In this document: in pieces, positions 2,177 through 58,050 of the stretch | How the letters are laid out: each line of letters opens with the position of its first letter | Numbering within the stretch: position 1 is the first letter of the stretch | From: Escherichia phage vB_ESM-pEJ01 | Sequence record: OP114734.1 | Direction: 5' to 3' (one strand) | Length of the DNA stretch: 64,000 nt | The notes under the pieces: generated by a model | Seen by the model: the letters and a program-made list of their open reading frames with translations, nothing else | Told to the model about the DNA's origin: nothing | The model's database searches: none | Position numbers and translations under genes: made by a program

Positions 2177-2650
2177 CTATTTGTTAAGCCCTTTAAAGCC
2201 AAATACTTTCTTTAATGCATGTTCGGTTATGATCTTAAACTCCATGTTATGCTTTTGGCATAATTTCACGGCAGCTAACCATTTTTCAGTATTTTTTGTG
2301 TACGTCCATACTTCATGCATATACCGTTGCTTTGTCTTCGCGGTCATTCTTTTTGGCTTTTCCGGTGGCCTTGTCTCTTTAGCTGGTTTAACTTCCCATA
2401 AATGCTCCTTGCCATCATCAAACTTAACGTAAAAATCCATAAAGTATCTGTGTCTTTTTCCGTCTGTTGATGACTCATAAGGAATTACTACGGTCTCAGA
2501 TCCCCATTTTGCAACTCTAGGATTGCGGTCTAGCCACTGCATGATCCATCTTTCCCAGCTTGAACGGTATGTGATTTTCCGTATATCCCCTTTATACTTT
2601 TCCTTATTCTCAGGAACATACTTGCCCTTATAAGTGTTAGATCCTCCCAT
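2177..2650 (-). CDS. 4: head completion protein gp4
   Basis: 157 aa; synteny between gene 2 and gene 53, divergent from gene 53. Confidence 0.7.
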   Translation of the reverse strand: MGGSNTYKGKYVPENKEKYKGDIRKITYRSSWERWIMQWLDRNPRVAKWGSETVVIPYESSTDGKRHRYFMDFYVKFDDGKEHLWEVKPAKETRPPEKPKRMTAKTKQRYMHEVWTYTKNTEKWLAAVKLCQKHNMEFKIITEHALKKVFGFKGLNK

Positions 2651-2665
2651 TTTAGCACCCTTTAT

Positions 2666-2673
2666 TATAAATA
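2666..2673 (+). promoter_or_regulatory. T4-type late promoter TATAAATA upstream of gene 53
   Basis: exact TATAAATA about 33 nt upstream of the gene 53 ATG. Confidence 0.5.
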
Positions 2674-2705
2674 CATAATACTATTTATCAATTGAGGGTG
2701 CTAAA

Positions 2706-3260
2706 ATGCTCTTTTCTTTCTTCCCTGCCATAGAATACAACGGCAAGATGATTACTGACATTGTGCGCAATTACCGCGCATATTTCAACGCAATAATTTC
2801 TGATTATAACATACAAACATATTACATTCAAGGTAGTCCACGACCGGAACAGGTTGCATATGAAGTATACGGAAACCAGCAACTTTATTGGATCTTGCTG
2901 ATGCTTAATGACGTATACGATCCGTTTCATGACTGGATCACCGATCAAGAGACAGCATATGAATCAGCCGAACAACGATATGCAAATGTAGGAGGAAATC
3001 AAGTATTATATCACGTTGATATTGACGGAAACAAGTATTGGAATCTTACCGAATATCCGAAAGGATCAAGCAATTGGTACGACAAAGGGGATATTCATCA
3101 CCGTCATTTGCAGTTTCATGGTGCACTGTCGGCGGTAGACACACTGGAAGATGCGATCCTCCGCAACGAGGAACGACGCAAGATCAAGATCATAGATCCT
3201 ACACAAATTAAACAATTTATTAACGCATTCATTCGAGAAATGGAAAAGGCTGATGTGTAA
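2706..3260 (+). CDS. 53: baseplate wedge protein gp53
   Basis: N-terminus MLF.FF..IEY and motifs YYIKGSPRPE, YGN.QLYW, KIKII match my recollection of T4 gp53; synteny. Confidence 0.85.
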   Translation: MLFSFFPAIEYNGKMITDIVRNYRAYFNAIISDYNIQTYYIQGSPRPEQVAYEVYGNQQLYWILLMLNDVYDPFHDWITDQETAYESAEQRYANVGGNQVLYHVDIDGNKYWNLTEYPKGSSNWYDKGDIHHRHLQFHGALSAVDTLEDAILRNEERRKIKIIDPTQIKQFINAFIREMEKADV

Positions 3261-20972: not shown

Positions 20973-21008
20973 TTTATTGGGGGAGTATTCCCCCATTTGG
21001 AGTAACAT

Positions 21009-22622: not shown

Positions 22623-24943
<2,321 letters not shown>

Positions 24944-24974
24944 CGATAATGCATAAAAAGATGAGGAAATTCTA

Positions 24975-26972
24975 ATGACTCTATTATCACCGGGTTTCGA
25001 AACGAAAGAAACTACTCTCTCCACTACCATTGTGCAATCTGCGACTGGTCGCGCGGCACTGGTGGGTAAATTCCAATGGGGTCCAGCTTTCCAGATTATT
25101 CAAGTAACTAATGAGGTTGAATTAGTTAATAAATTTGGTCAGCCGGATAATAACACCGCAGACTATTTCATGAGCGGGGCTAACTTCCTCCAGTATGGTA
25201 ATGACCTGCGTGTTGTTCGTGTACTGAATAAAGAAAAAGCAAAAAACGCAACTGCACTGGCTGGTAACGTCGAGTTTGAAATCACAAACGAAGGTTCAAA
25301 CTATAAGGTTGGCGATAAGATTAAAGTAAAATATCAAAATACGGAAATTGAAACTGGCGGTAAAGTTACTAAAATCAGCGCAGAAGGTAAAATTAAGGGT
25401 ATTTTTATTCCAACTGGCAAGCTGATTGCACACGCAAAAGCAATCGGGGTATATCCAAAACTGGAAGGGTACACCGTAGAAATCACTTCTGAAACAGGTA
25501 ACTCAGGCGCATCGATCACTGTATCTGGGATTGTAGTAGACTCCGGTCTTCTCTTAACGGATCTGGAAACTTCCCGTGCCAATATCACAAGTCAAACTTT
25601 CTTGACTAAACTCAAGAAATATGACATGCCAGCGGTAAGCGCGATCTATGCTGGTGAGATTGGTAACTCTCTGGAAGTTGAAATTCTGGCACGTAGTGCG
25701 TTTAAGAATACTGCACCGGATCTGACCATGTATCCTTATGGTGGCGAGCGCACCGCAGCACGCAACCTGATTCCATACGCACCGCAGAATGATAATCAAT
25801 ATGCGTTTATTGTTCGTCGCGATGGTGTTGTGGTAGAATCCTATGTACTGTCTACTCTGAAAGGGGATAAAGACGTATACGGCAATTCTATCTATATGGA
25901 CGACTTCTTTGCTCGTGGTTCTAGCCAGTACATCTATGCAACCGCTCAGGGCTGGGTAGATGGTTTCAGTGGCATTATCTCTCTTGCTGGCGGTGTTTCT
26001 GCGAACGAATCCAGCACGAGTGACCACAAAAATGATCCGTTCATCGGTGCGATGATGCAAGGTTGGGATCTGTTCGCTGAACGTGAATCTATTCACGTAA
26101 ACCTGCTGATCGCTGGCGCGTGTGCTGGTGAGAGTGACGCATTTTCTACTGTACAGAAACATGCTGTTTCTATCGGTGACGAGCGTCAGGATTGCTTAGT
26201 AATGGTTTCCCCTCCGCGTAGCACTGTTGTTAATATTCCGGTGACTACCGCAGTAGACAACCTGATCCACTGGCGAGAAGGTAGTAATAGCTACACAGAC
26301 AACAACATGAACATTAATACCACTTACGCGGTTATTGATGGTAACTACAAATATCAATATGACAAATACAACGATGTAAACCGTTGGGTTCCGTTGGCTG
26401 CTGATATTGCTGGTTTGTGTGCTCGTACTGATGCTGTATCTCAGCCGTGGATGAGTCCGGCAGGTTATAACCGTGGTCAGATTATGAATGTTGTTAAGCT
26501 GGCTATTGAGCCTCGCAAGGCGCACCGTGATCGTCTGTATCAGGCCGCAATTAACCCGGTAATCGGTGCTGGCGGTGAAGGGTTTATCCTGATGGGTGAT
26601 AAAACTGCTACGACTGTTCCTAGCCCGTTTGACCGCATTAACGTTCGTCGTTTGTTTAACATGCTGAAAAAGAATATCGGCGATTCAAGCAAATACAAAC
26701 TGTTTGAAAACAACGATAACTTTACTCGCGCTTCCTTCCGTATGGAGGTTTCGCAATATCTAAGCACGATTCGCTCTCTGGGCGGCATTTATGACTTCCG
26801 AGTACAATGCGACACCACGAACAACACGCCGGATGTAATTGATCGTAACGAATTTGTTGCTAGTATGTTCATCAAACCAGCAAAATCGATCAACTATATC
26901 ATGCTCAATTTCACTGCTGTTGCAACTGGTGCTGATTTTGACGAAATTATCGGTCCAGCTAACCAGGCATAA
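24975..26972 (+). CDS. 18: tail sheath protein gp18
   Basis: 665 aa; N-terminus MTLLSPG...; synteny 17-18-19. Confidence 0.95.
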   Translation: MTLLSPGFETKETTLSTTIVQSATGRAALVGKFQWGPAFQIIQVTNEVELVNKFGQPDNNTADYFMSGANFLQYGNDLRVVRVLNKEKAKNATALAGNVEFEITNEGSNYKVGDKIKVKYQNTEIETGGKVTKISAEGKIKGIFIPTGKLIAHAKAIGVYPKLEGYTVEITSETGNSGASITVSGIVVDSGLLLTDLETSRANITSQTFLTKLKKYDMPAVSAIYAGEIGNSLEVEILARSAFKNTAPDLTMYPYGGERTAARNLIPYAPQNDNQYAFIVRRDGVVVESYVLSTLKGDKDVYGNSIYMDDFFARGSSQYIYATAQGWVDGFSGIISLAGGVSANESSTSDHKNDPFIGAMMQGWDLFAERESIHVNLLIAGACAGESDAFSTVQKHAVSIGDERQDCLVMVSPPRSTVVNIPVTTAVDNLIHWREGSNSYTDNNMNINTTYAVIDGNYKYQYDKYNDVNRWVPLAADIAGLCARTDAVSQPWMSPAGYNRGQIMNVVKLAIEPRKAHRDRLYQAAINPVIGAGGEGFILMGDKTATTVPSPFDRINVRRLFNMLKKNIGDSSKYKLFENNDNFTRASFRMEVSQYLSTIRSLGGIYDFRVQCDTTNNTPDVIDRNEFVASMFIKPAKSINYIMLNFTAVATGADFDEIIGPANQA

Positions 26973-27006
26973 TCAGTAAATTAGCATAGTTTAAAAGTTA
27001 AATCAA

Positions 27007-27025
27007 GCGGGGAGAAGTTCCCCGC
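27007..27025 (+). repeat. 19-nt hairpin GCGGGGAGAAGTTCCCCGC upstream of gene 19 (copy 1)
   Basis: 7-bp stem and 5-nt loop; identical copy at 27553-27571. Confidence 0.5.
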
Positions 27026-27045
27026 TCTATTAAGGAATATCAATT

Positions 27046-27540
27046 ATGGCACTCGATTTGAATGATATTACACGCGGTTTCGAGTCTGGCGATTTTGCTC
27101 GTCCTAACCTGTTTGAAGTTGAGATCCCTTATTTGGGGCAAAACTTTAAGCTGATGTGTAAAGCCGCAACTGTTCCTGCTGCAACCGTAGAAAAAATTGC
27201 TGTAGGCTATCAAAACCGTAAAATTAACATCGCTGGCGACCGTGTATACGACGACTGGACCATCACTGTATTCAACGACGACGCACACAAGATCCGTGAT
27301 GCTATCGTCGCATGGAGCGATCAGACACACGGTACTGGTTCGGCGATCACTGGTGCAACTCCTGCACAATATAAGAAACAAGCTATTGTTCGTCAACTTA
27401 ACCGTAACACCGAAGCATCAAGCGAAAAAACATTGTACGGTATTTTCCCGACTAACGTTGGTGAAGTAACCCTCGATTGGGATCAAAACAACGAAGTTGA
27501 AACGTTTGAAGTTACTTTTGCTATCGATTGGGTAGAATAA
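27046..27540 (+). CDS. 19: tail tube protein gp19
   Basis: 164 aa (T4 gp19 163 aa); synteny. Confidence 0.9.
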   Translation: MALDLNDITRGFESGDFARPNLFEVEIPYLGQNFKLMCKAATVPAATVEKIAVGYQNRKINIAGDRVYDDWTITVFNDDAHKIRDAIVAWSDQTHGTGSAITGATPAQYKKQAIVRQLNRNTEASSEKTLYGIFPTNVGEVTLDWDQNNEVETFEVTFAIDWVE

Positions 27541-27552
27541 ATATATTATCAC

Positions 27553-27571
27553 GCGGGGAGAAGTTCCCCGC
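27553..27571 (+). repeat. 19-nt hairpin GCGGGGAGAAGTTCCCCGC downstream of gene 19 (copy 2)
   Basis: identical to 27007-27025. Confidence 0.5.
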
Positions 27572-27598
27572 CTAATTTCTCCCAATTCGAGGTGAATA

Positions 27599-29164
27599 AT
27601 GTTTAGTAGATTAAAAATGCTTGCGCGTTGGGCTGATTTTGACAACGACAAATACGAAGAACAAATTAAAGATAAAGCAGAGTCTATCGCCGCACCTAAA
27701 AATAATGATGGTGCTACGGAAGTAGAAATTAATGATAATTCTCCGGCTAGCGCATGGAACTCTCTTACCCAGCAATTTTACAGCACCGACCAGAAAATCA
27801 GCACAACTAAGCAATTAGTTAACACATATCGCGGTTTGATGAATAACCATGAAGTCGAAAACGCTGTACAAAATATCGTTAACGATGCGATTGTATTTGA
27901 AGACGGTCACGATGTGGTTTCATTAAATCTTGAGGCGACTGGTTTTAGTGAATCTGTAAAAGAGCGCATTCATGAAGAATTTAAAGATCTTTTAAACACT
28001 ATCCAGTTTGAGAAACGCGGTCAGGATATGTTCCGTCGCTGGTATGTCGATTCGCGTATTTTCTTCCATAAAATCATCGGTAAAAATCCAAAAGATGGTA
28101 TCGTAGAATTACGCCAACTTGATCCGCGAAATCTTGAATATGTTCGCGAGATCATTACAGAAGACACACCGGAAGGTAAAATTTATAAAGCAACGAAAGA
28201 ATATTTCATTTACACTGTAGGCAATAGCTCTTATTGCGCAGGTGGTCAAGTATTCTCTCCTAATAGTCGCGTTAAAATCCCGCGTAGTGCCATTACATAC
28301 GCTCATAGCGGCTTGATGGATTGCGATGATAAATATATCATTGGTTATTTGCATCGGGCTGTTAAGCCAGCAAACCAGCTTAAATTGTTGGAAGACGCAA
28401 TGGTCGTTTATCGTATCACGCGTGCACCGGAACGCCGAGTGTTCTTTATTGATACCGGAAACATGAACAACCGCAAGGCTGCACAGCACATGAACTCAGT
28501 GGCACAGTCTTTTAAAAACCGCGTTGTTTATGATGCATCGACTGGTAAACTTAAAAACCAGCAAGCAAACCTATCAATGACAGAGGACTACTGGTTACAG
28601 CGTCGAGATGGTAAAGCAATCACCGATGTTACTACTTTACCCGGTGCATCTGGTATGAGTGATATCGATGATATTCGCTACTTTAACCGTAAATTGTATG
28701 AAGCGTTGCGTGTACCATTGTCCCGTAGTAATCTCTCTGATGCTAATATGGTTATTGGTGGTGATGGTTCAGAAATTACGCGCGATGAGTTGGAATTTTC
28801 GAAATTCATTAGAACTCTGCAAACACAGTTTTCGGAAGTATTGCGCGATCCACTTAAATATAATCTGATTCTTAAAAATGTAATTACGGAAGACGATTGG
28901 GATCGTGAAATAAATAATATCAAGGTGGTTTTCCATCGGGACTCTTATTATACAGAAGTTAAAGACGCGGAAATTTTAGAACGTCGAATCGGTCTAATCG
29001 AACGTATCGCCCCTTACATTGGTAAGTATTTCTCTAACCAGACAGTGATGCGTGACATTCTGAAATATACCGATGACCAGATGGACACCGAGAAGAAACA
29101 GATCGAAGAAGAAGCGAACGATCCGCGCTTTAAACAAACTCCCGATGAAATAGAGGATTTTTAA
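27599..29164 (+). CDS. 20: portal vertex protein gp20
   Basis: 521 aa (T4 gp20 about 524 aa); synteny 19-20-67-68-21-22-23. Confidence 0.95.
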   Translation: MFSRLKMLARWADFDNDKYEEQIKDKAESIAAPKNNDGATEVEINDNSPASAWNSLTQQFYSTDQKISTTKQLVNTYRGLMNNHEVENAVQNIVNDAIVFEDGHDVVSLNLEATGFSESVKERIHEEFKDLLNTIQFEKRGQDMFRRWYVDSRIFFHKIIGKNPKDGIVELRQLDPRNLEYVREIITEDTPEGKIYKATKEYFIYTVGNSSYCAGGQVFSPNSRVKIPRSAITYAHSGLMDCDDKYIIGYLHRAVKPANQLKLLEDAMVVYRITRAPERRVFFIDTGNMNNRKAAQHMNSVAQSFKNRVVYDASTGKLKNQQANLSMTEDYWLQRRDGKAITDVTTLPGASGMSDIDDIRYFNRKLYEALRVPLSRSNLSDANMVIGGDGSEITRDELEFSKFIRTLQTQFSEVLRDPLKYNLILKNVITEDDWDREINNIKVVFHRDSYYTEVKDAEILERRIGLIERIAPYIGKYFSNQTVMRDILKYTDDQMDTEKKQIEEEANDPRFKQTPDEIEDF

Positions 29165-29383
29165 ATGAAACAATTTATCGAAGCAATTAAAACTCGCGAT
29201 CTAACGCTGATCGAAAAAGAATTTGATAAGATCATGGAGGCTAAAAAAGCCCAGATCATCGAATCCCAGCGTGTCGAAATCGCATCCAGTGTCATGATCG
29301 AAGGTGAAGAAGAACAAGACCGCGATGATGAGGACAACGAAGATCGCAAAGACGATAAAAAAGACAAAGAAGACGACGAATAA
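29165..29383 (+). CDS. 67: prohead core protein gp67
   Basis: 72 aa with highly acidic C-terminus; synteny after gene 20. Confidence 0.7.
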   Translation: MKQFIEAIKTRDLTLIEKEFDKIMEAKKAQIIESQRVEIASSVMIEGEEEQDRDDEDNEDRKDDKKDKEDDE

Positions 29384-29395
29384 TAGGAAGCCAAC

Positions 29396-29803
29396 ATGAT
29401 TAAAGATTTTACTCCTAAAGCTGACTTGGAAACTTTTCTGCCGGAAGCACAGGAAAAATTGGACATGTTGGCTATGTTTGAGTCAGAAGAACTATTGAAA
29501 ATCGTTGAAGGTATCGCCGAAGATGAGCCGGAATTGGCTGTAGCAATGCTGTCTATCATCGACGGAATCACTGTAAACGAGGCAATGGTTAAACATGTAA
29601 ACGCACGCGGGGAAGTTGCACGTAAGAAAGATCGCAAAACCCGTGAGCGTAATGCTTACATGACTACTGGCCTAAGCAAAGCTAAACGCCGTCAAATTGC
29701 CCGTCGTGCTGCAAAAACCAAACGTGCAAATCCATCTATCGAACGTCATGCGGAACGTAAGCGCAAAAAAGCAATGCGTAAACGTAAGGCGTTAGGATTA
29801 TAA
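29396..29803 (+). CDS. 68: prohead core protein gp68
   Basis: 135 aa, basic C-terminus; synteny. Confidence 0.7.
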   Translation: MIKDFTPKADLETFLPEAQEKLDMLAMFESEELLKIVEGIAEDEPELAVAMLSIIDGITVNEAMVKHVNARGEVARKKDRKTRERNAYMTTGLSKAKRRQIARRAAKTKRANPSIERHAERKRKKAMRKRKALGL

Positions 29804-29814
29804 CAGGAAACAAC

Positions 29815-30510
29815 ATGGAAAAGAACGAATTACTGATCGAACAATGGGGCGTTCCTTGTGCTCGCGGTAGTTCGTCATTGCTTGAATCATTTGATGATAA
29901 GGCTACAGGAAATCTCTATATTCAAGGGATTTTCCTGCAAGCCGAAACAGTAAACCGTAATAAACGCTGGTATCCTCGCAGCGTTCTAGAAAATGCGGTT
30001 ACTAAATACATACATGAACAAGTTGAGACACATCAAGCTCTAGGCGAACTTAATCACCCAGCAAGAGCAATGCCAGATCCATCGAATGCTTGCATCATAA
30101 TTGAAAAATTGTGGTGGGAAGGTAATAACGTGATGGGTAAAGCCCGTGTTATTGAAGGGGATAAAGGCGCAGGTGATAAACTTGCCGCACTGATTCGCGC
30201 TGGCTGGATTCCTGGCGTTTCATCCCGTGGATTGGGTCGGTTGAAAGACTCTGGACGCGGATACAATATTGTACAGGAAGGGTTTGTGTTGACGGTTGGT
30301 GTTGATGTTGTATGGGGTCCGAGCGCACCAGATGCGTGGGTAACTCCGGTGGTTGAGTCAACGGATAGCGATTCTAGCGCGTCAGACGCACCAGAAAGCG
30401 TTAAAACCGAAAAAGTGACTAACCCTACAGCCCCACAACAAAACATCGTAGAATCGAATAATAGCGCGTTTATGGCGCTCGCAGAAGCGTTATCTAAACG
30501 CTATAAATAA
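29815..30510 (+). CDS. 21: prohead core protease gp21
   Basis: 231 aa; synteny before scaffold gene 22. Confidence 0.85.
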   Translation: MEKNELLIEQWGVPCARGSSSLLESFDDKATGNLYIQGIFLQAETVNRNKRWYPRSVLENAVTKYIHEQVETHQALGELNHPARAMPDPSNACIIIEKLWWEGNNVMGKARVIEGDKGAGDKLAALIRAGWIPGVSSRGLGRLKDSGRGYNIVQEGFVLTVGVDVVWGPSAPDAWVTPVVESTDSDSSASDAPESVKTEKVTNPTAPQQNIVESNNSAFMALAEALSKRYK

Positions 30511-30541
30511 TAACGTCGTTATCAACAAGAAGGTTATAACC

Positions 30542-31336
30542 ATGCTTAAAGAAATGCTGCTCGAAGAAGCAAAACAGATCACCGTAGACGTTGCTCTCGA
30601 TGACCTGTTTGAATCCGTCGAACTGTCGCCGGAAGTAAAAGAAAATTTTGGTACTATCTACGCTCAAGCGGTAAAAGCTAATGCTGTTGCACTGGCAGAA
30701 AGCCACATTGAAAAAATCGCCGCTAAAGCCGATGAACTGGTAGAATCAAAGGTCGAAGAAGCACGCACCGAGATTGAAACCAAACTGTACGAAGATGCAG
30801 ATAAATTCCTGAATCACTTAGGCGCTAAATGGCTGGCAGAAAATAAAGAAGCCGTCACCCGTAATATTAAAGCGGATCTGTGCGAATCCCTGATTGGTTC
30901 TCTGAAAGATGTTTTCGTTACTCACAATGTTGTAGTACCGGAAGAATCTGTAGACGTTGTTGCTGAACTGGACGAAGCACTCAAAGAAGAAAAAGAAAAA
31001 ACTTCTGAACTCTTTGATGCCAAACTGCAACTTGAAAGCGAAATTCGTGGCATGAAGCGCGAACAAGCGATCAATGAAAGCACGCGTGATCTTTCCGATA
31101 CTCAGAAAGAAAAAGTAACCGCGCTGATTGAAGGTCTGGAATATAGCGAAACTTTCGATAAGAAATTAACTGCAATTGTCGAAATGGTTGCTAAGAAAGA
31201 AGACAAACCAGCGAAGATTGAAGAATCACTAAATACTGATGCCGACAAGCTGAATGTTATTGCAGAAGCTGTCGAAGAATCAGAGAAAAAAGCAACTGTA
31301 GATTCCGGCGTATCTCGCTACCTGAATTTCATCTAA
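30542..31336 (+). CDS. 22: prohead core scaffold protein gp22
   Basis: 264 aa, acidic alpha-helical composition; synteny. Confidence 0.85.
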   Translation: MLKEMLLEEAKQITVDVALDDLFESVELSPEVKENFGTIYAQAVKANAVALAESHIEKIAAKADELVESKVEEARTEIETKLYEDADKFLNHLGAKWLAENKEAVTRNIKADLCESLIGSLKDVFVTHNVVVPEESVDVVAELDEALKEEKEKTSELFDAKLQLESEIRGMKREQAINESTRDLSDTQKEKVTALIEGLEYSETFDKKLTAIVEMVAKKEDKPAKIEESLNTDADKLNVIAEAVEESEKKATVDSGVSRYLNFI

Positions 31337-32982: not shown

Positions 32983-33067
32983 TATAAGCCATTCCTGAAA
33001 AACTCCGGTCGGGTGCAATACCCGACCTATCATAAACCTTATGACAGTGTAAAGTGTTAATTCCAAA

Positions 33068-33096
33068 GGGAAGACTCGAAAGGGTCTTCCCTTTTT
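33068..33096 (+). terminator. intrinsic terminator after gene 23
   Basis: hairpin GGGAAGAC...GTCTTCCC followed by TTTTT. Confidence 0.7.
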
Positions 33097-39396: not shown

Positions 39397-40899
39397 ATGC
39401 AAGATATTAAAATTCACTTTCTGAACTACTCCCATGTTCAAATTGAATGTAGCGATTCAATTTTATTAGAAATGCGAGATTATTTTAGTTTTGAAGTCGA
39501 GGGAGCGCGGTTTCAAAAAAGATTTAAGTATGGTGGATGGGATGGGCGTATTCGTCTTTTAGATTACAACGGAAAGCTGCCAATCGGCCTAACTAAAACC
39601 GTGGGAATCTTCGCTAAAAATATGGGCTATAGCGTATGGGTAGATCCTCGCTTATTCGAAAAAGAACAAGTTACAGAAGAAGAAATTACAAAATGGTGTA
39701 ATGACTTAGAATTATATTCCGGTGCTAACAGGATCACCCCGCATTGGTATCAATCAAAGGCCGTCTTTGAAGGTATTCATCATAAACGCCGTATGTTAGT
39801 TTTGCCTACGTCCGCTGGTAAATCTGCGATTGCTTGTATGTTGTCTCGTTGGTACTTAGAGAACTACGAAGGGAAAGTGTTGATCATCGTTCCTACCACG
39901 TCGCTAGTGCTGCAAATGCGTGATGACTTTGTTGATTATCGCCAGTTTCCTTATGAAGCAATTCATACTATCATGAGCGGTACTAGTAAACACGTAGGTG
40001 ATCGCCTGATCGTTGTTAGTACGTGGCAATCTGCATGTAAACAACCTCGTGAGTGGTTCCAACAATTCGGGATGGTTATTGTTGACGAATGTCATAAAGC
40101 CACTGCTAAAAACCTGCTAAACATCGTTACTGATATGGATCATTGCCAGTTCAAAATCGGTATGACTGGTTCCCCGAAAGAATCAAAGTGCCATTTAATG
40201 CAGTATGTCGGGCTTTTCGGTGATATTTCTAAGATCGTGAGTATTGACCGCCTGATGGAAGAAGGCCAGGTGACAAAACTGAAAATTAACTGTCTTTTCC
40301 TTCGTTATACCGATGAGGAATGTAGCGCGGTTAAGGGGCGAGAATATGCGGAAGAGATCAAGTATATTACGTCTAACCCACGACGAAATAAGTTTGCTTG
40401 TAATTTGGCGCTAAAACTCGCTAAGAAGGGCGAAAACGTATTCCTGATGTTCCGCAATACTAAGCACGGAAAACTTATGTATGACGCGTTACAGAAGGTA
40501 CACGACAAGGTTTATTATATTGACGGTGGAGTTAAGACAGAAGAACGTGATGAATTTAAGAAAATGGCGGAGGGTGACACCGGGATCATTTGTGTTGCGT
40601 CTTATGGTGTGTTCTCTACTGGTGTTTCAATTAAGAATTTGCACCATGTTATTTTCGGTCATCCAGTGAAGGAATCAACTATCGTTCGTCAGAGTATCGG
40701 TCGTGCATTGCGCAAACATGGTTCTAAGGATATTGCAACGGTCTGGGATCTTATAGATCATCTGGCGGTGAAGACAAAGAGCAAGAATGCTAAGAAACAG
40801 TTTAGTCACCTTAATTATGCTCTTAAACATGCCCTTGAAAGAATAAAAATTTACAACACCGACCGATTTGAATATGTCACGAAAACCATCGAGATTTAA
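39397..40899 (+). CDS. uvsW: UvsW DNA/RNA helicase
   Basis: start moved to ATG at 39397 (MQDIKIHF..., T4 UvsW begins MDIKVHF); FSFE..G.RF..RF.YG.WDGRIRLLDYN and Walker A LPTSAGKS match T4 UvsW. Confidence 0.9.
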   Translation: MQDIKIHFLNYSHVQIECSDSILLEMRDYFSFEVEGARFQKRFKYGGWDGRIRLLDYNGKLPIGLTKTVGIFAKNMGYSVWVDPRLFEKEQVTEEEITKWCNDLELYSGANRITPHWYQSKAVFEGIHHKRRMLVLPTSAGKSAIACMLSRWYLENYEGKVLIIVPTTSLVLQMRDDFVDYRQFPYEAIHTIMSGTSKHVGDRLIVVSTWQSACKQPREWFQQFGMVIVDECHKATAKNLLNIVTDMDHCQFKIGMTGSPKESKCHLMQYVGLFGDISKIVSIDRLMEEGQVTKLKINCLFLRYTDEECSAVKGREYAEEIKYITSNPRRNKFACNLALKLAKKGENVFLMFRNTKHGKLMYDALQKVHDKVYYIDGGVKTEERDEFKKMAEGDTGIICVASYGVFSTGVSIKNLHHVIFGHPVKESTIVRQSIGRALRKHGSKDIATVWDLIDHLAVKTKSKNAKKQFSHLNYALKHALERIKIYNTDRFEYVTKTIEI

Positions 40900-40942
40900 T
40901 AAATAGGGGCTTTAATGCCCCTTTATTCTACGGAGATTAAAA

Positions 40943-52870: not shown

Positions 52871-52900
52871 ATTATAGGGGATCACCGATCCCCCTGTCAA
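52871..52900 (-). promoter_or_regulatory. PeSL-like early promoter unit 1 (TTGACA-N18-TATAAT, palindromic spacer)
   Basis: - strand -35 at 52895-52900, -10 at 52871-52876; spacer GGGGATC...GATCCCC. Confidence 0.6.
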
Positions 52901-52907
52901 CAACTTT

Positions 52908-53426
52908 TTAGTTATTTTTTAATTGTTCATCTTGCAATAATGCAATCACATGCTGGCGATGCTCTTCTGATTGAGGCACACCAAAAAAGTTTGTTTTGTA
53001 GAAATACTCTAATCGGTCTTCTCGTGTGCTCTCTTCCATCATGATCGCGGGTAGTCCGAGATTTCGGAAACGTCGCTTTTCTGCTGGCGTAAAATCACTG
53101 TAATACAACATAGAATCATCATTACCAGCAATGCTAAACTCATCCTTCATGAAAGAGAATATTGCGTTTAAACGCTGTTTACCGTCCACGATTTCGATCT
53201 CATAGCGAGAGCCATCATCAATCTTAGCCATTGCGATAGAGCCTACCGGAAAATCATTAATCATGTTTTCGATAAACATACGTTTGTTTTCGGTGTCCCA
53301 TACCAAAGGACGCTGATAATCTGGGTTCATGTTGATATAGCCATCTTCTAACCATGCCTCATAAACAGAGATGACAAAGTTTTTAGTATTGGTATAGTAA
53401 CGGCGTTTAGGCGTTAAACGGTTCAT
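52908..53426 (-). CDS. DUF262 / ParB-like nuclease-domain protein
   Basis: motifs NPDYQRPLVWD and VDGKQRLNA (DGQQR-type); start moved to ATG at 53426 (RBS AGGAG), 1 nt after the upstream stop. Confidence 0.65.
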   Translation of the reverse strand: MNRLTPKRRYYTNTKNFVISVYEAWLEDGYINMNPDYQRPLVWDTENKRMFIENMINDFPVGSIAMAKIDDGSRYEIEIVDGKQRLNAIFSFMKDEFSIAGNDDSMLYYSDFTPAEKRRFRNLGLPAIMMEESTREDRLEYFYKTNFFGVPQSEEHRQHVIALLQDEQLKNN

Positions 53427-53427
53427 G

Positions 53428-53760
53428 TTATAGTCTCCTGAATGGATCATCACGTAAATCAATATCTTTTAAGAACTCATCCCATGAATGGCGGATATTA
53501 TTCTTAATTCTCCAGATAAGCGAAGGGATTGAACGCTCTCCCATCTGGAAGTATGGATCATATGATCCGTATGCCCAATATGCTACTACAATTCCGCAAT
53601 CAGTGCAATAGTATTCTATCTCGCTTGCTGGCGACCAAAGTCCATCAATATGATCACGGATCTTGCTTTCAATGTTATGACTATGGCAATCAGGGCAACG
53701 GATGCAATGACCTTGTTTGTCATAATTTGACGTTAGCGAATACTTAAACAATCTCATCAT
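53428..53760 (-). CDS. Zn-ribbon protein (110 aa)
   Basis: CIRCPDC...H and CTDCG cysteine pairs; start overlaps upstream stop by 4 nt. Confidence 0.6.
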   Translation of the reverse strand: MMRLFKYSLTSNYDKQGHCIRCPDCHSHNIESKIRDHIDGLWSPASEIEYYCTDCGIVVAYWAYGSYDPYFQMGERSIPSLIWRIKNNIRHSWDEFLKDIDLRDDPFRRL

Positions 53761-54473
53761 AGATCCTTATTGGCTTCAAATACTGCCTTTGCGAATCCTC
53801 GCGGGGTAAGTGACCTGATAGTCTTTGTTCTGGTTCCTTTCCCGCCTAGCTTAGAATGCTGTTTACTGTACCCTTTATTAATCGGCAACGGTTTCTTTTC
53901 TGGCATTATAAAGCCTTGTCCGGTCCATAAGCAAGTCTTTTTCGGGTACATATCACGGGCGGCAATATACTCAGGAAACGTAGGATGTATATCATCTTCC
54001 GGCAAATAACCGCCATATTCCCACGGGTGGAACATGTAATCAGGCTTACGCCACATGCTAGAGATAACGCTTACAGGATTCTCTATCATGTAGGGAACTC
54101 CTAGCCATTCACCCAAATAAGCGGTTATTTTAGCTGCCCGTACATCATGAACTTGAATCAACGGTCCTTGTTCTAGTTTCTTTCGTTCAAAGTGCGCAGC
54201 GCCACTAACAGCTAAATTGGTGCACGGTGGGAATGCAAAGATAATATCCGGTTTCCCCCATTCAAGGTCCATTGCTCTTTCCAGCCAGTTCAAATCAATC
54301 CAGGTGTTTACATAGGTAATGTTTTGATGTTCAAATCGGGTATTATATTTTTTGTATGTACCGTGGTCGCCATCGTCAGCATTAAAGCAGATCACCTTAT
54401 GACCTGCTTTAGCCCATTCTAACCCCATTATCCCCGATCCGTCAAAGTTGCAGAATATTAATTTTTGTTTCAC
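53757..54473 (-). CDS. compact DNA C5-cytosine methyltransferase-like protein (no large target-recognition domain)
   Basis: motif I FCNFDGSGIMG, motif IV FAFPPCTNLAVSGA (Pro-Cys), motif VI MIENPVS, motif IX-like IRSLTPRGFAKA in canonical order; GTG start overlapping upstream TGA. Confidence 0.65.
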   Translation of the reverse strand: MKQKLIFCNFDGSGIMGLEWAKAGHKVICFNADDGDHGTYKKYNTRFEHQNITYVNTWIDLNWLERAMDLEWGKPDIIFAFPPCTNLAVSGAAHFERKKLEQGPLIQVHDVRAAKITAYLGEWLGVPYMIENPVSVISSMWRKPDYMFHPWEYGGYLPEDDIHPTFPEYIAARDMYPKKTCLWTGQGFIMPEKKPLPINKGYSKQHSKLGGKGTRTKTIRSLTPRGFAKAVFEANKDL

Positions 54474-54721
54474 GCTGCCCCCATTGGTTTGATAGTAACA
54501 GAATCTAAAAGACCTTTGTTAGCCAGTTCGCGGCAAGTTTTCAGATCCGCAACTTCCCAGCCAGCCGCAATCAGGTTATCGATTAGGCTGTTAGCAACTT
54601 CTTCGCTCATGAAAGAGCACTGTTTGCCGATGGTGTAGCGTACACGCTGTAATTTCAGTTTACGGAAGCCTTTAACGTTCAGGTCTTTAGCGATTTTCTT
54701 TGCGGTTTCGATGTTAGCCAT
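54470..54721 (-). CDS. hypothetical protein (83 aa), first gene of the four-gene operon
   Basis: ATG with RBS GGAGAA directly downstream of PeSL unit 2; N-terminus MANIE. Confidence 0.55.
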   Translation of the reverse strand: MANIETAKKIAKDLNVKGFRKLKLQRVRYTIGKQCSFMSEEVANSLIDNLIAAGWEVADLKTCRELANKGLLDSVTIKPMGAA

Positions 54722-54761
54722 TGTTTGATTCTCCTAAGTGGTATCTCGTCTTGATGGTTGT

Positions 54762-54790
54762 ATTGTAGGGGAGTTATCCTCCCCTGTCAA
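54762..54790 (-). promoter_or_regulatory. PeSL-like early promoter unit 2 (TTGACA-N17-TACAAT)
   Basis: palindromic spacer GGGGAGGATAACTCCCC. Confidence 0.6.
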
Positions 54791-54804
54791 CACTTTTTAT
54801 AAAA

Positions 54805-54972
54805 TTATTTGTTAATTTCTGGTGCGTTGCTAGGATAGTAACCTTCTTTAACTCCGAGATATTTCGCAACCATCCCTACAATCTTCTGTGCTACTACAAT
54901 GTCAAATTTCAGATAATCTTCGCCGTGGGTTTCAATGATATATGCTTCACATGCTGCTTTAGTCTCGAACAT
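54805..54972 (-). CDS. small protein (55 aa), paralog of 58083-58250
   Basis: manually found ORF MFETKAACEAYIIETHGEDYLKFDIVVAQKIVGMVAKYLGVKEGYYPSNAPEINK; RBS GGAGAA. Confidence 0.55.
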   Translation of the reverse strand: MFETKAACEAYIIETHGEDYLKFDIVVAQKIVGMVAKYLGVKEGYYPSNAPEINK

Positions 54973-55005
54973 TTTGATTCTCCTATTTCGTTTCGTTATG
55001 TGTGT

Positions 55006-55034
55006 ATTATAGGGGATCTCCAGATCCCCGTCAA
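55006..55034 (-). promoter_or_regulatory. PeSL-like early promoter unit 3 (TTGACG-N17-TATAAT)
   Basis: palindromic spacer GGGGATCTGGAGATCCC with two GATC. Confidence 0.6.
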
Positions 55035-55048
55035 CAACTTTTTTAAAA

Positions 55049-55330
55049 TTATTCGTGATTAGTTTCGATGTTGTGCATTTTGCACCAGTTCAGCCAATCA
55101 CCCAGATCCTGATAGTTAATGCTTTTATCTGCTGCCATCGTTTTTGTCTTGATACCCATATGTGCGTTATGAGTAAGCATTTTTACAGTGAACTCAATTT
55201 TATCACCTTTAGCTTTAACATCAACCAGTTTGGTCCACTGGCTACCAGCGCCGCGAATGTTCATACCAACGATGTTTCCGATGTATGCTTCTTTGTTTTT
55301 CAGGATTTCGGTTGCTTTGATGAATTTCAT
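55049..55330 (-). CDS. hypothetical protein (93 aa)
   Basis: ATG with RBS GGAGAA downstream of PeSL unit 4. Confidence 0.55.
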   Translation of the reverse strand: MKFIKATEILKNKEAYIGNIVGMNIRGAGSQWTKLVDVKAKGDKIEFTVKMLTHNAHMGIKTKTMAADKSINYQDLGDWLNWCKMHNIETNHE

Positions 55331-55363
55331 TTTTGATTCTCCAGTTCGTTTCGGTATGTGTGT

Positions 55364-55392
55364 ATTATGCTATGTTCTTACTTTGGTGTCAA
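55364..55392 (-). promoter_or_regulatory. PeSL-like early promoter unit 4 (TTGACA-N17-CATAAT)
   Basis: no spacer palindrome. Confidence 0.5.
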
Positions 55393-55400
55393 CAACTTTT

Positions 55401-55670
55401 TTAGATATTTTCAGAAATAAATTTTAAAACTTGACGTAAATGTTTCTCATCTTTGATAGTCGCCGGAAGTTCTTCTTTTACTTCCTGTGCAAGATAGATA
55501 TTTCCGTTCCAAGTGAAAGATCCGTCTTCGTTTACGCGATAGCTGAACATCCACTCGCAATCATTTTCGATTTCATATACACACAGAAGGGTGTAATCGT
55601 TAAAGCTATTGATTTCAAGGTCGAAGCCGTGACGTTTTGCAAAGTTGGTAGTGGTTTTAGTCAGCGCCAT
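55401..55670 (-). CDS. hypothetical protein (89 aa)
   Basis: ATG with RBS GGAGAA downstream of PeSL unit 5. Confidence 0.55.
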   Translation of the reverse strand: MALTKTTTNFAKRHGFDLEINSFNDYTLLCVYEIENDCEWMFSYRVNEDGSFTWNGNIYLAQEVKEELPATIKDEKHLRQVLKFISENI

Positions 55671-55710
55671 TGTTTGATTCTCCTAAGTGGTATCTCGTTT
55701 CGATGGGTGT

Positions 55711-55739
55711 ATTATGCTATAGGCGTGATCTGGTGTCAA
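55711..55739 (-). promoter_or_regulatory. PeSL-like early promoter unit 5 (TTGACA-N17-CATAAT)
   Basis: leader nearly identical to unit 6. Confidence 0.5.
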
Positions 55740-55763
55740 CAACTTTTTTAAAATTTTATGCAA

Positions 55764-55788
55764 TAAAAAGCCGACACTAAGGTCGGCT
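55764..55788 (-). terminator. intrinsic terminator after family member A
   Basis: perfect 7-bp stem AGCCGAC/GTCGGCT, U-run on - strand. Confidence 0.65.
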
Positions 55789-55795
55789 AATAAAA

Positions 55796-56104
55796 TCATT
55801 TAGACAAATAATCATTCAGTGCAATCCGGTCGGCATGTTCCGGCGTTACGTCAATCGCAATCAGTTTAACGCGTGCTTTCTTGCGACCTGGGTTTTCTCG
55901 TAACCAGTGCTCATGACCGTGAACATTTTTATACTGCGATGCTTCTTCGAAGGTACGGATCGGACCTGGGTAATCAGCGTAAAGGATCTCTAGGTCATCG
56001 GTGATGTAAAAATATACGTTGTAATTGCTGTTCTCTAGTTTAAGCAGAGACATTCGGAACATTGGGAGATTTTCGCGGGTAAATTCAAAGATATTATCTT
56101 TCAT
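55796..56104 (-). CDS. H-x-H-W family small protein A (102 aa)
   Basis: start moved to ATG at 56104 (RBS GAGGA); C-terminal HGHEHWLRENPGRKKARVKLIAIDVTPEHADRI. Confidence 0.55.
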   Translation of the reverse strand: MKDNIFEFTRENLPMFRMSLLKLENSNYNVYFYITDDLEILYADYPGPIRTFEEASQYKNVHGHEHWLRENPGRKKARVKLIAIDVTPEHADRIALNDYLSK

Positions 56105-56130
56105 AGTATTATCCTCAATAGTTGGATGAA

Positions 56131-56150
56131 ACGGGGGCTTAACGCCCCGT
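56131..56150 (-). other. hairpin of the GGGGC-TTAAC-GCCCC family
   Basis: same stem-loop as at 52601-52620 and, in the gene-sense orientation, 20002-20018. Confidence 0.4.
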
Positions 56151-56153
56151 ATA

Positions 56154-56441
56154 TTAAAACAGCCCTTCCTGTACACCGTAGTAGAGTTCATCGCTGATAA
56201 TTTCATTAATGCGACGGTGTGCATATTCCTGATTTGCGAAGTTGTCAGCAAGTTCTACTTTAGTTTCGCCGTCATGAGTCCATTTAGTGATAACTTTACC
56301 ATCTGCAAATTTGAAGTTGAACTCTTTAGCTACCGCATCGCGTACCAGACGTGCAAACTTGTTGTTGCGGATTGCATTGTCGGTTTCGTGTGCAGCGTGA
56401 GCGAATTTGTTAACTTTCAGAGTGATAGTAATGTATGCCAT
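56154..56441 (-). CDS. hypothetical protein (95 aa), paralog of 59727-60038
   Basis: RLVRDAVAKEFNFK versus REVRKALAKEFNTK in 59727-60038; RBS GGAGAA. Confidence 0.55.
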   Translation of the reverse strand: MAYITITLKVNKFAHAAHETDNAIRNNKFARLVRDAVAKEFNFKFADGKVITKWTHDGETKVELADNFANQEYAHRRINEIISDELYYGVQEGLF

Positions 56442-56487
56442 AATTTGATTCTCCTAGTTAGAAAGTGTATCTCGTTTCGATGGGTGT

Positions 56488-56516
56488 ATTATGCTATACA
56501 CCCGATCTTATGTCAA
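56488..56516 (-). promoter_or_regulatory. PeSL-like early promoter unit 6 (TTGACA-N17-CATAAT)
   Basis: leader nearly identical to unit 5. Confidence 0.5.
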
Positions 56517-56522
56517 CACTTT

Positions 56523-56801
56523 TTATAAAATAATTTTTTGATATTTTTCTATGATGTTCGTGTAAGTCACATCAACCGCTATCACCGTTGCTTCGAATCC
56601 ACCGTTTAGCCAATGGCTATGGTCATGATCGTGAAAGAAACCAAGACCAGTACGAAGACCTTCTTTATATTCGGCGCGTACATTTAGATCATCATCGATA
56701 AACAGATAAAACCATGAATTTTTACTAGGATTGATGATACAACCTTTCAGATTAGGGAGAATATCACGACTAAGAATAAACTTATCACCTACTTTGAACA
56801 T
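56523..56801 (-). CDS. H-x-H-W family small protein B (92 aa)
   Basis: start moved to ATG at 56801 (RBS GAGGAA); C-terminal HDHDHSHWLNGGFEATVIAVDV. Confidence 0.55.
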   Translation of the reverse strand: MFKVGDKFILSRDILPNLKGCIINPSKNSWFYLFIDDDLNVRAEYKEGLRTGLGFFHDHDHSHWLNGGFEATVIAVDVTYTNIIEKYQKIIL

Positions 56802-56815
56802 AATATTTTCCTCAC

Positions 56816-57124
56816 TTATAAAGTTTGACCGTTGTTTTTCGCGTAATGCTGAATGCGTGCTTGATCTGCTTCCGCTGGTGATAGATTCCATGCAACCACT
56901 ACAACTTCTGACGCATCGTCATCCGTTTCTGATACCCAATGATTGTGATTCATACAGTTATTTGCTATCGAGTGAGCAAATGATTTCATCACTGGAGACG
57001 TATAATCATAGTAACGGATTTTCAGATTTTCATCAACATACAAGTAGATCGTATAAGGTTTATATTCAGTAACCAGTAACAGACAGTTACGCAATTCTGG
57101 GAAAATCTTTTTAGTTAATTTCAT
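56816..57124 (-). CDS. H-x-H-W family small protein C (102 aa)
   Basis: start moved to ATG at 57124 (RBS GAGGA); C-terminal HNHWVSETDDDASEVVVVAWNLSPAEADQ. Confidence 0.55.
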   Translation of the reverse strand: MKLTKKIFPELRNCLLLVTEYKPYTIYLYVDENLKIRYYDYTSPVMKSFAHSIANNCMNHNHWVSETDDDASEVVVVAWNLSPAEADQARIQHYAKNNGQTL

Positions 57125-57125
57125 T

Positions 57126-57344
57126 TTATAATCCTCGGTCTCGGCTATAGTACACGGTACGCCATACAATTTCATGTTTCGTGTCGCTCCAGCACACGAT
57201 CTCATTTACTCTTAAATCTTTGTTATCAACAAAAGATGAACATTGTGACGCTTCTTTCATCATTTTATCTGCTGTTTTCTCATCAAATACAGCACAGATT
57301 TCTTTATACACTCGATAATCTTTGAATTGACTCTGAATACCCAT
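57126..57344 (-). CDS. hypothetical protein (72 aa), tandem paralog of 57304-57561
   Basis: SQFKDYRVYKEI...KMMKEASQC versus SKFKEYKAYQQI...KMMEDASKC. Confidence 0.5.
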   Translation of the reverse strand: MGIQSQFKDYRVYKEICAVFDEKTADKMMKEASQCSSFVDNKDLRVNEIVCWSDTKHEIVWRTVYYSRDRGL

Positions 57345-57561
57345 AATTAACACCATTCCAACCAATTGTTTTTGAGAAAACGTCTATCCACTGTTGAGTG
57401 TAGCATGTTTCTTTCCATGATACAATACGAGTGGAATAATGGTTTTTGTTTCCAGAAAAGGACGGGCATTTTGATGCATCTTCCATCATCTTTTCGGCGA
57501 ACTCTGGTGCGTATACTCGCAGGATCTGTTGATATGCTTTGTATTCTTTAAATTTGCTCAT
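57304..57561 (-). CDS. hypothetical protein (about 85 aa), tandem paralog of 57126-57344
   Basis: overlaps the downstream paralog by about 40 nt; start ambiguous (57561 or 57567). Confidence 0.5.
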   Translation of the reverse strand: MSKFKEYKAYQQILRVYAPEFAEKMMEDASKCPSFSGNKNHYSTRIVSWKETCYTQQWIDVFSKTIGWNGVNYGYSESIQRLSSV

Positions 57562-57826
57562 AATCATTCACTACCTTATCAGCTTCTTTTGTTGTTTTTA
57601 CATCAACTGCGATAACTCGTAAAGGTTCGTCATGGTTCCACCAGTGGTCATGAATATCAGCTTGTGATTTATCACCAAAGGAATCACGAATATCATTTTT
57701 ACATTTATAGCTAATGTGACCTTCATAGTCAACATAAAGGTAATTATCGAAAATCGGCGTTTTTAAGATCATACCGAAAAATCTTTCTTTGTGTGTCTTA
57801 TCCAGCGTTACAGTAATTCGCATCAT
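57548..57826 (-). CDS. H-x-H-W family small protein D (92 aa)
   Basis: RBS AAGAGGAA; C-terminal IHDHWWNHDEPLRVIAVDVKTTKEADKV. Confidence 0.55.
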   Translation of the reverse strand: MMRITVTLDKTHKERFFGMILKTPIFDNYLYVDYEGHISYKCKNDIRDSFGDKSQADIHDHWWNHDEPLRVIAVDVKTTKEADKVVNDYEQI

Positions 57827-57838
57827 AATATATTCCTC

Positions 57839-58018
57839 TTAGAAAGGGATGGTCATTTCTTGAGCTTGTACATTCTCGTTAGGATTAAACTTCATCCAAC
57901 CGATATTGTCTACCAGCATATGTACATTTTTATCATATCCTACGTGAGTAGTCAACACTAAATGTGCTTTACCTTCAACGATGATTTCCATGTACTTCTG
58001 AACTTCGATAGCTTTCAT
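57839..58018 (-). CDS. hypothetical small protein (59 aa)
   Basis: manually found ORF MKAIEVQKYMEII...; RBS GGAGAA downstream of PeSL unit 7. Confidence 0.45.
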   Translation of the reverse strand: MKAIEVQKYMEIIVEGKAHLVLTTHVGYDKNVHMLVDNIGWMKFNPNENVQAQEMTIPF

Positions 58019-58050
58019 TTTGATTCTCCGTTTGTTGTCTTGATGGGAGT

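Follow-up and report, generated by a model that had tools for sequence, protein, structure and literature searches.

Hairpins on both sides of the tail tube gene of a T4-type phage: candidate mRNA punctuation within a late operon

Two identical 19-nt hairpins flank the tail tube gene (gene 19) of Escherichia phage vB_ESM-pEJ01 (sequence record OP114734.1), a T4-type phage. They were examined within a stretch of 64,000 nucleotides of its genome, referred to here as the window. In this region the window is ~97% identical to RB49-like coliphages (Krischvirus, Straboviridae), and gene 19 itself shows ~97% DNA identity to Krischvirus tail tube genes. Genes were placed from open reading frames (ORFs) and Pfam matches, and the locus reads as follows.

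24936–24943, + strand: canonical late promoter TATAAATA (P18), upstream of gene 18
24975–26972, + strand: gene 18, tail sheath protein gp18 (ORFs and Pfam)
27006–27026, + strand: hairpin 1, a stand-alone 8-bp stem with a 5-nt loop; core 19-mer at 27007–27025
27032–27036, + strand: gene-19 Shine–Dalgarno sequence AAGGA, 5 nt 3' of hairpin 1; annotated as the ribosome-binding site (RBS) in phage Ec_Makalu_001
27046–27540, + strand: gene 19, tail tube protein gp19 (ORFs and Pfam PF06841)
27536–27543, + strand: possible weak late promoter AATAAATA, overlapping the gp19 stop codon; predicted start ~27549
27553–27571, + strand: hairpin 2, a 7-bp stem with a 5-nt loop; apical element of the 19–20 junction structure
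27599–29164, + strand: gene 20, portal protein gp20 (ORFs and Pfam)

The hairpins within the P18 transcription unit

The 19-mer GCGGGGAGAAGTTCCCCGC occurs exactly twice in the 64 kb, both times on the + strand (27007–27025 and 27553–27571), and no further site was found there even when three mismatches were allowed (0 of 100 shuffles matched). From the end of each copy to the ATG of the gene that follows there are 20 nt (copy 1, gene 19) and 27 nt (copy 2, gene 20), in agreement with an earlier note on this DNA, which had placed a 19-nt hairpin on each side of gene 19, about 20–30 nt ahead of the two start codons. Both copies form a stem of 7 bp with a loop of 5 nt (−12.9 kcal/mol, z = −3.9), a stability that none of 200 shuffled sequences reached. 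Copy 1 gains an eighth pair, A–U (27006–27026), and overall the stems have 7–8 bp, six G–C pairs and free energies of −12.9 to −14.5 kcal/mol. Hairpin 1 lies in the 73-nt spacer between genes 18 and 19, 33 nt past the gp18 stop codon and 5 nt before the gene-19 Shine–Dalgarno sequence, while hairpin 2 lies 12 nt past the gp19 stop codon. An Rfam scan of 24000–31000 with E up to 1 gave no relevant family match, and exact matches in IMG/VR were limited to the window's own contig and phage ECD7.

GC-rich perfect hairpins are ~14-fold enriched in the window (20 observed versus 1.4 in dinucleotide shuffles). Two others, TGGGGGAGTATTCCCCCA between genes 13 and 14 (20978–20995) and GGTCGGGTGCAATACCCGACC after gene 23 (33007–33027), have no usable U-tract and appear to belong to the same class as hairpins 1 and 2; a canonical terminator (33068–33096) comes 40 nt after the second.

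Both hairpins are internal to a late operon. The next canonical TATAAATA on the + strand after 24936 is at 30502, and in the published RB49 promoter list P18 at 86777 is followed by an entry at 92358 (Nolan 2006). A motif search of the window found no canonical late promoter for gene 19 or gene 20, and none between P18 and gene 22. Because no canonical late promoter lies between 24936 and 30502, genes 18 to 21 form one late unit that holds both hairpins, and expression of gene 19 requires read-through of hairpin 1. Late promoters of RB49-type phages have a motif that spans −13 to −6, with A or T at position −13 (Nolan 2006). The possible weak promoter AATAAATA at the gp19 stop codon would start transcription at ~27549, 4 nt 5' of hairpin 2. 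The same 8-mer also overlaps the stop codon at 40898, though no promoter is needed there; at 40898–40922, a convergent gene end, TAATAAATA overlaps the stop codon, and the hairpin AGGGGCTTTAATGCCCCT comes immediately after it. Because this layout is so similar, AATAAATA at the gp19 stop codon could be fortuitous.

For gene 20, the RB49 record mentions an alternative start 18 nt downstream (27617 rather than 27599), and JSE is annotated with the later ATG. The first ATG (27599) is preferred here because, by eye, the Shine–Dalgarno sequence GAGGTG precedes it and because the N-terminus that it gives seems, also by eye, to resemble that of T4 gp20.

Both hairpins have the GC-rich stem and short loop of an intrinsic terminator. 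Neither has a U-rich tract directly 3' of the stem, the tails being CUAUUAAGG and CUAAUUUCUC. T-scores are ~1.0 for both, versus 2.8–4.4 for the terminators at unit ends in the window, which supports the earlier note's remark that neither copy has a strong U-tract. On a d'Aubenton-Carafa type discriminant the two hairpins score −32 and −33 and the unit-end terminators +13 to +41; the low values are due mainly to the poor U-tail scores. A looser, simple scan flags hairpin 2 on the + strand (5 T in 8) and hairpin 1 on the − strand only. In GenBank, G2248 has both hairpins labelled as terminators; in Makalu_001 and Makalu_003 hairpin 1 is so labelled, on the minus strand. In T4, sheath gp18 and tube gp19 are needed in a ratio of ~1:1. 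Because gene 19 depends on read-through and its product is needed in the same amount as gp18, hairpin 1 cannot terminate efficiently. We conclude that hairpins 1 and 2 are probably at most weak attenuators and not efficient intrinsic terminators.

Conservation of the stems and variation of the loops

All 11 Krischvirus genomes compared share an unchanged stem, GCGGGG/CCCCGC, at both sites; their loops differ. The upstream loop is AGAAAAT in most of these genomes, AGAAGTT in the window, MIZ6 and JK32, AGAAAT in G2248 and ATTTTCT, an exact inversion of AGAAAAT, in JSE. The downstream loop is AGAAGTT throughout except in JK32 (ATTATT). Among 58 Krischvirus records, five match the window's upstream 53-nt segment exactly and ~46 differ from it at two loop bases; JSE and Skers have five mismatches, as an inverted loop would give (for Skers judged from the mismatch count). 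The downstream segment, which holds hairpin 2, is within 2 nt of the window in 57 of the 58. A second match was recorded for phage UPWr_E1. On these comparisons only a minority of relatives have two exactly identical copies. The identity is confined to the window's sub-lineage and is not a conserved feature: most relatives have different loops. For the same reason, recognition of a shared loop sequence by some factor is not expected. Because the stems are invariant while the loops vary in sequence, in length and once in orientation, selection appears to act on structure, that is, on the stem rather than on a shared loop sequence.

The loop of hairpin 1 (27013–27019) is a hotspot of multi-nucleotide change, which includes both the inversion and a switch to the hairpin-2 loop. 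MIZ6, JSE and phiS have three different upstream loops, yet differ at 3–4 of ~760 other positions. The occurrence of three loops among genomes that are locally near-identical indicates that this loop alters by multi-nucleotide events on very short branches. The JSE inversion may have arisen by intra-palindrome template switching, and the change of AA to GT by ectopic conversion from the downstream copy.

Beyond Krischvirus, the 18/19 and 19/20 junctions were taken from T4, a T4-group relative, Slopekvirus (PMBT1), Pseudotevenvirus (Margaery), Enterobacter phage MY742, Gelderlandvirus (STML-198) and Gaprivervirus (VR7). Jiaodavirus (AShe-2020a), Biquartavirus (44RR), Vibrio phages (nt-1 and KVP40-like), Acinetobacter phages Acj61 and Acj9 and one uncultured relative were also sampled. 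A stable GC-rich hairpin is found in both junctions in 12 of 12 closer T4-type lineages, usually 5–16 nt past the upstream stop codon, and the stem sequences are unrelated between lineages. Two very distant relatives (32–37% gp19 identity) are without the pair, one having no hairpin and the other one just after gene 19. The earlier note had proposed conservation of the element in related phages as a check, and it is there: the stems are kept in the 11 Krischvirus genomes and a hairpin is present in the 12 closer lineages, so that the note is not refuted on its own terms. The T4 19–20 hairpin, AUGGGGAGAAAUCCCCAU, has the core GGGGAGAAAUCCCC in common with the Krischvirus elements, its core GGGGAGAAATCCCC being nearly the same as theirs, and it has no U-tract. 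UUCG or GAAA tetraloops occur in relatives at the same junctions.

Most lineages sampled have a late promoter (TATAAATA or AATAAATA) coupled to the hairpin. At the 18–19 junction of most lineages the promoter directly follows the hairpin; at the 19–20 junction it precedes the hairpin by 1–10 nt in six of the nine lineages sampled first and follows it in T4 and STML-198. PMBT1, Margaery, MY742, VR7 and 44RR have one or other motif at the place homologous to the gp19-stop site of the window. In PMBT1, Margaery, 44RR and the Acinetobacter phages the predicted late start falls within the hairpin, so transcripts initiated there cannot form it. A long (11–15 bp) intergenic hairpin of the Acinetobacter phages carries TATAAATA in its loop or 5' arm (Acj61 555–605 and 1693–1755, Acj9 1693–1745, in the extracted loci), and such a hairpin can form solely on read-through transcripts. 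Because the promoter may lie after the hairpin, inside it or so close before it that transcription starts in the 5' arm, the sole role common to all lineages would be one on transcripts that arrive from upstream.

The 18–19 junction has also received insertions. A ~200-aa HNH/endonuclease-VII-like gene (phrog_5104, the 'gp19.1' family) stands between genes 18 and 19 in three distant genera, at 2554–3153 in phiS, 1232–1837 in VR7 (gp19.1) and 606–1232 in Acj61 (extracted loci), a place equivalent to 26973–27005 of the window. Amino-acid identity to the phiS copy is 52% for VR7 and 38% for Acj61, and each copy is preceded by its own strong hairpin directly past the gp18 stop codon. In phiS the stop codon of the inserted ORF is 4 nt before hairpin 1, and the sequence is again homologous to the window from ~8 nt ahead of the hairpin-1 stem. 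The gene looks like a free-standing homing endonuclease that targets the 18–19 junction.

The 19–20 junction fold and candidate functions

Folded together with the 3' end of gene 19, hairpin 2 becomes the apex of a larger structure closed by a basal helix.

27517–27537, + strand: 5' strand of the basal helix, formed by the final seven sense codons (F A I D W V E) of gene 19 and ending directly ahead of the stop codon
27577–27596, + strand: 3' strand of the basal helix; holds the gene-20 Shine–Dalgarno sequence GAGGUG (27589–27594)

The complete 91-nt fold has a free energy of −28.2 kcal/mol (z = −3.53), and none of 200 shuffles was equally stable. The basal duplex alone (−17.7 kcal/mol) is matched by 0.6% of shuffled leaders and by 0.5% of 9118 natural windows (p ~0.005), and it is an outlier among the 16 late-gene junctions of the window, of which the next best reaches −11.7. 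Ten Krischvirus genomes have this sequence unchanged. The most divergent genome, JK32, shows three changes within or next to the helix. Two of these were inspected by hand and strengthen the pairing (a U–G wobble becomes C–G, a bulged U is lost); overall the duplex reaches −23.4. T4 and its T4-group relative have an analogous helix, UGGGAAU::AUUCCCA plus CUC::GGAG (−14.9, p ~0.01, z = −3.53), and in T4 the canonical gene-20 promoter TATAAATA is within its closed loop. The helix was not significant at nine of the 14 loci tested, so that support comes from Krischvirus, the T4 group and, weakly, one uncultured relative. A search by analogy for a long-range helix around hairpin 1 found none (p ~0.7–0.9).

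An outer helix seen in a short fold, AUUAUCAC/GUGAAUAAU, was discarded, as longer upstream sequence replaces it with the stronger pairing of the gene-19 coding end. A TTCCCA-like motif stands just 5' of the gene-20 Shine–Dalgarno sequence in Krischvirus (27577–27585), T4, MY742, VR7 and the uncultured relative; it is the reverse complement of TGGGAA, which encodes the conserved Trp-Glu at the gene 19 end.

The 19-nt hairpin by itself leaves the RBS unpaired; in the larger fold the gene-20 Shine–Dalgarno sequence is paired in silico, as in the RBS sequestering known from T4-type phages. The possible promoter AATAAATA would start transcription inside the structure and 3' of the 5' strand of the basal helix. 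Here the translated end of gene 19 would supply the masking strand, which predicts that translation of gene 20 is coupled to that of gene 19, an arrangement reminiscent of classic translational coupling. The proposal that the hairpins act as translation regulators of the 18:19:20 ratio can therefore be kept for the 19:20 step, where the hairpin 2 fold pairs the gene-20 Shine–Dalgarno sequence, and not for the 18:19 step, where hairpin 1 has no link to an RBS. With no such structural link, and with gp18 and gp19 at ~1:1, hairpin 1 probably sets no 18:19 ratio.

The reading we prefer, tentatively and at somewhat less than an even chance, is that the hairpins serve as punctuation at the mRNA level: exonuclease barriers or weak attenuators on the polycistronic P18 mRNA, with hairpin 2 also nucleating a fold that limits translation of gene 20. 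We infer its functional steps from the presence, fold and conservation of the hairpins, their poor U-tails, the operon context and the complementarity at the 19–20 junction. Hairpins 1 and 2 would be the Krischvirus versions of the T4-type 18/19 and 19/20 junction hairpins, lying within the P18 late mRNA. On transcripts from upstream the stems would stall 3'-to-5' exonucleases and perhaps cause slight termination, so that the sheath and tube segments of the mRNA would outlast or outnumber the portal segment. The T4 virion has ~138 copies each of the sheath and tube proteins and 12 copies of the portal protein. As a second role, hairpin 2 would cap the 91-nt fold, where the gene-20 Shine–Dalgarno region is paired with the final seven sense codons of gene 19. 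On read-through mRNA a ribosome finishing gene 19 would have to open the helix before gene 20 could be translated, while transcripts from the possible weak promoter AATAAATA would be free of the masking strand. The identity of the two copies may have no function and stem from repeated short-patch conversion, or template switching, between the two nearly identical palindromes, which lie 546 bp apart.

Several observations weigh against this reading. TransTerm calls hairpin 2 of RB49 a terminator ('19-->20', 89423–89441; Nolan 2006, supplementary file 6) with a confidence of 100, in agreement with the simple scan; hairpin 1 is not among its calls in RB49. No usable transcript-end maps of T4 or Krischvirus over genes 18–20 were found in the literature. 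Hairpin 1 may serve as a 3' barrier or as a 5' stabiliser or insulator alike; in Krischvirus it is nearer to gene 19 than to the gp18 stop codon. The basal helix is unsupported in the Slopekvirus, Pseudotevenvirus, Biquartavirus, Acinetobacter and Vibrio phages, and within Krischvirus it shows essentially no covariation because the region is nearly invariant. Accessibility of the gene-20 Shine–Dalgarno sequence is low in every transcript model, read-through or promoter-proximal, and so does not discriminate between them. Lastly, the AATAAATA site at the gp19 stop codon is absent from the predicted RB49 promoters.

A more elaborate proposal, which we regard as possible though doubtful, is that the 19–20 junction of Krischvirus and the T4 group forms a conserved composite riboregulator. 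The 19-mer would cap the helix between the gene 19 end and the gene-20 Shine–Dalgarno sequence, with a late promoter in the loop; coupling and promoter-dependent unmasking would together set a tube:portal ratio of ~10:1, and ectopic gene conversion (concerted evolution) would keep the caps alike.

The earlier note also judged the elements likelier to act in processing, stability or translation than as terminators. The poor U-tails and the Shine–Dalgarno pairing at the 19:20 step favour that judgement; leaky termination is retained as a rival, if an unlikely one. Were the hairpins leaky intrinsic terminators or attenuators, a fraction of RNA polymerases would stop at each and transcription would be stepped down from gene 18 to 19 to 20. 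The TransTerm call for hairpin 2 in RB49, its detection on the + strand by the simple scan and the GenBank labels in G2248, Makalu_001 and Makalu_003 all point this way, the lower need for gp20 than for gp19 fits a step-down past gene 19, and in other genera a late promoter stands beside each hairpin, as if transcription needed re-supply. However, the U-tails are poor and the discriminants are ~45–75 units below those of the real terminators of the window; hairpin 1 has no promoter 3' of it and gp19 is needed in the same amount as gp18, which leaves room for little termination; and the homologous T4 19–20 hairpin likewise has no U-tract. It is quite unlikely, too, that the hairpins are mainly 5'-end stabilisers or RBS insulators. 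Stem-loops at the 5' terminus stabilise E. coli mRNAs, and here a hairpin brought to the 5' end of the gene-19 or gene-20 mRNA, by cleavage in the AU-rich spacer or by initiation at AATAAATA, would block RNase E and keep the RBS unstructured. Such a role would suit the position of both hairpins 20–27 nt before start codons and the predicted start at 27549, which leaves just 4 unpaired nt ahead of hairpin 2. MY742 and VR7 have the same geometry (promoter, ~10 nt, hairpin), the phiS insertion parted hairpin 1 from gene 18 and left it attached to gene 19, and the unrelated Citrobacter phage Tr1 has a sigma-70 promoter and a near-identical hairpin followed by CTAATAAGGA and ATG. Against it, the promoter follows the hairpin in T4 and at most 18–19 junctions, and the late start is inside the hairpin in PMBT1, Margaery, 44RR and the Acinetobacter phages, so that the resulting mRNA is without the hairpin; hairpin 1 has no promoter ahead of it and no known cleavage site; and AATAAATA overlaps a stop codon at 40898 as well.

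We consider it improbable that the hairpins are mainly DNA-level palindromes, acting as recombination or insertion boundaries like the PeSL stem-loops of RB49 and phi1, with little or no role in expression. Stems of the form Gn-loop-Cn are typical of PeSL, for which recombination has been mapped within a loop; the hairpin-1 loop is inverted or switched between genomes that differ at 3–4 of 760 other sites, and the mobile HNH-like gp19.1-family gene is inserted at the 18–19 junction in three genera, its boundary in phiS adjoining hairpin 1. Yet hairpin position is kept at both junctions despite unrelated stems, which argues for selection on transcript structure, hairpin 2 is part of a larger RNA fold with the Shine–Dalgarno sequence, and the genes are core late genes rather than the hyperplastic regions where PeSLs act. 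Least probable is a site for endonuclease processing, whether by RegB at the stem-loop GGAG or by RNase III in the stem. RNase III substrates are far longer than a 7–8 bp stem, and such a site was rejected on this ground. GGAG does occur in the 5' arm and loop (GCGGGGAGAA), and T4-type phages encode RegB. The RegB target is an 11-nt single-stranded GGAGAAUAAAA, GGAG plus an A-rich part, in early transcripts, while in T4 GGAG in structured intergenic stem-loops and in late transcripts is resistant (PMC1702504, PMC3014915). A RegB site was rejected because GGAG is structured here, lies in a late-gene hairpin and is not conserved, being lost in the JSE hairpin-1 and JK32 hairpin-2 variants while the stem is kept.

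The Tr1 element (Stephanstirmvirinae; 1470–1545 of the extracted locus) consists of TTGACA-17-TAATAT, AGCGGGGAAATGGTTCCCCGCT, CTAATAAGGA and ATG, and is 88.6% identical over 34 nt to the hairpin-1 and RBS module. Tr1 and hairpin 1 may represent a shared or convergent leader design of a 5' hairpin plus RBS.

T4-type phages make very unequal amounts of virion proteins from long, overlapping late transcripts, in a way that is only partly understood. If the stability of mRNA segments and the translation of the portal gene are indeed set by such hairpins and by the 19–20 fold, a simple and testable rule for late-gene stoichiometry would follow. It would also call for caution in annotation pipelines, in which hairpins of this kind are now labelled as terminators on either strand.

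Relation to known elements

Hairpins 1 and 2 belong to a long-known class, the intercistronic hairpins or predicted terminators of T4-type phages; they are ordinary and family-wide, not a new system. UUCG and GNRA hairpins in T4 mRNA were reportedly first noticed by Tuerk et al. in 1988 (via PMC4371310). The predicted terminators of T4-type phages in the TransTerm lists (Nolan 2006) resemble hairpins 1 and 2 in having short GC-rich stems, loops of 4–5 nt and positions between late genes. Unlike these, hairpins 1 and 2 are without the defining U-tract and lie inside an operon rather than at its end. What is new is modest: the family-wide conservation of position along with the coupling of hairpin and late promoter, and the helix between the gene 19 end and the gene-20 Shine–Dalgarno sequence. 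As far as the literature searched shows, this last fold has no earlier description.

Stem-loops within bacterial operons, such as the REP elements of malE-malF and those of puf and pap, stabilise mRNA and have no U-tract. The likeness lies in a stable hairpin without a U-tract between a strongly and a less expressed cistron, and in the proposed block to 3' exonucleases with differential stability of segments. REPs, however, are host-wide repeat families, whereas hairpins 1 and 2 are two phage-specific copies.

The PeSL cassettes of RB49 and phi1 (Arbiol et al. 2010; Comeau et al. 2014) come from the same phage group and share the Gn-loop-Cn stem (GCGGGG...CCCCGC), the pairing of stem-loop with promoter and the tendency to recombine. 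They differ in having a strong sigma-70 early promoter, in lying in hyperplastic early regions beside ORFans and in terminating efficiently in a reporter, whereas hairpins 1 and 2 are in a core late operon with at most the late-type AATAAATA beside hairpin 2. A search for a sigma-70 early promoter at the hairpins gave only a chance-level 9/12 match near hairpin 2, at 27518–27547 (37 sigma-70-like sites in the region versus 35.9 in shuffled sequence). Membership of the PeSL group was rejected, there being no early promoter and the hairpins flanking the core gene 19 between the sheath and portal genes. Elsewhere in the window, on the minus strand, PeSL-like sites occur at 52877–52893, 54767–54785, 55012–55029, 58290–58308 and 59694–59713. 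Read on the + strand their motif is TATA-GGGGA...TCCCC-TGTCAACAA; on the minus strand it is a stem-loop between TTGACA and TATAAT. By this motif the elements of 52877–59713 are the published PeSL cassette of RB49-type phages.

The 19–20 junction bears comparison with a further T4 system. In T4 soc, e, 49 and I-TevI the RBS is masked by a hairpin on long transcripts, and a late promoter bypasses the masking (Edgell review, PMC2988022). The 19–20 junctions of T4 and Krischvirus are alike in silico, with the RBS paired on the long transcript and a late promoter, in Krischvirus only the possible AATAAATA, inside the structure. They differ in that the 19-nt hairpin itself does not contain the RBS, and in that it is the 3' part of the preceding late gene's coding sequence that would do the masking.

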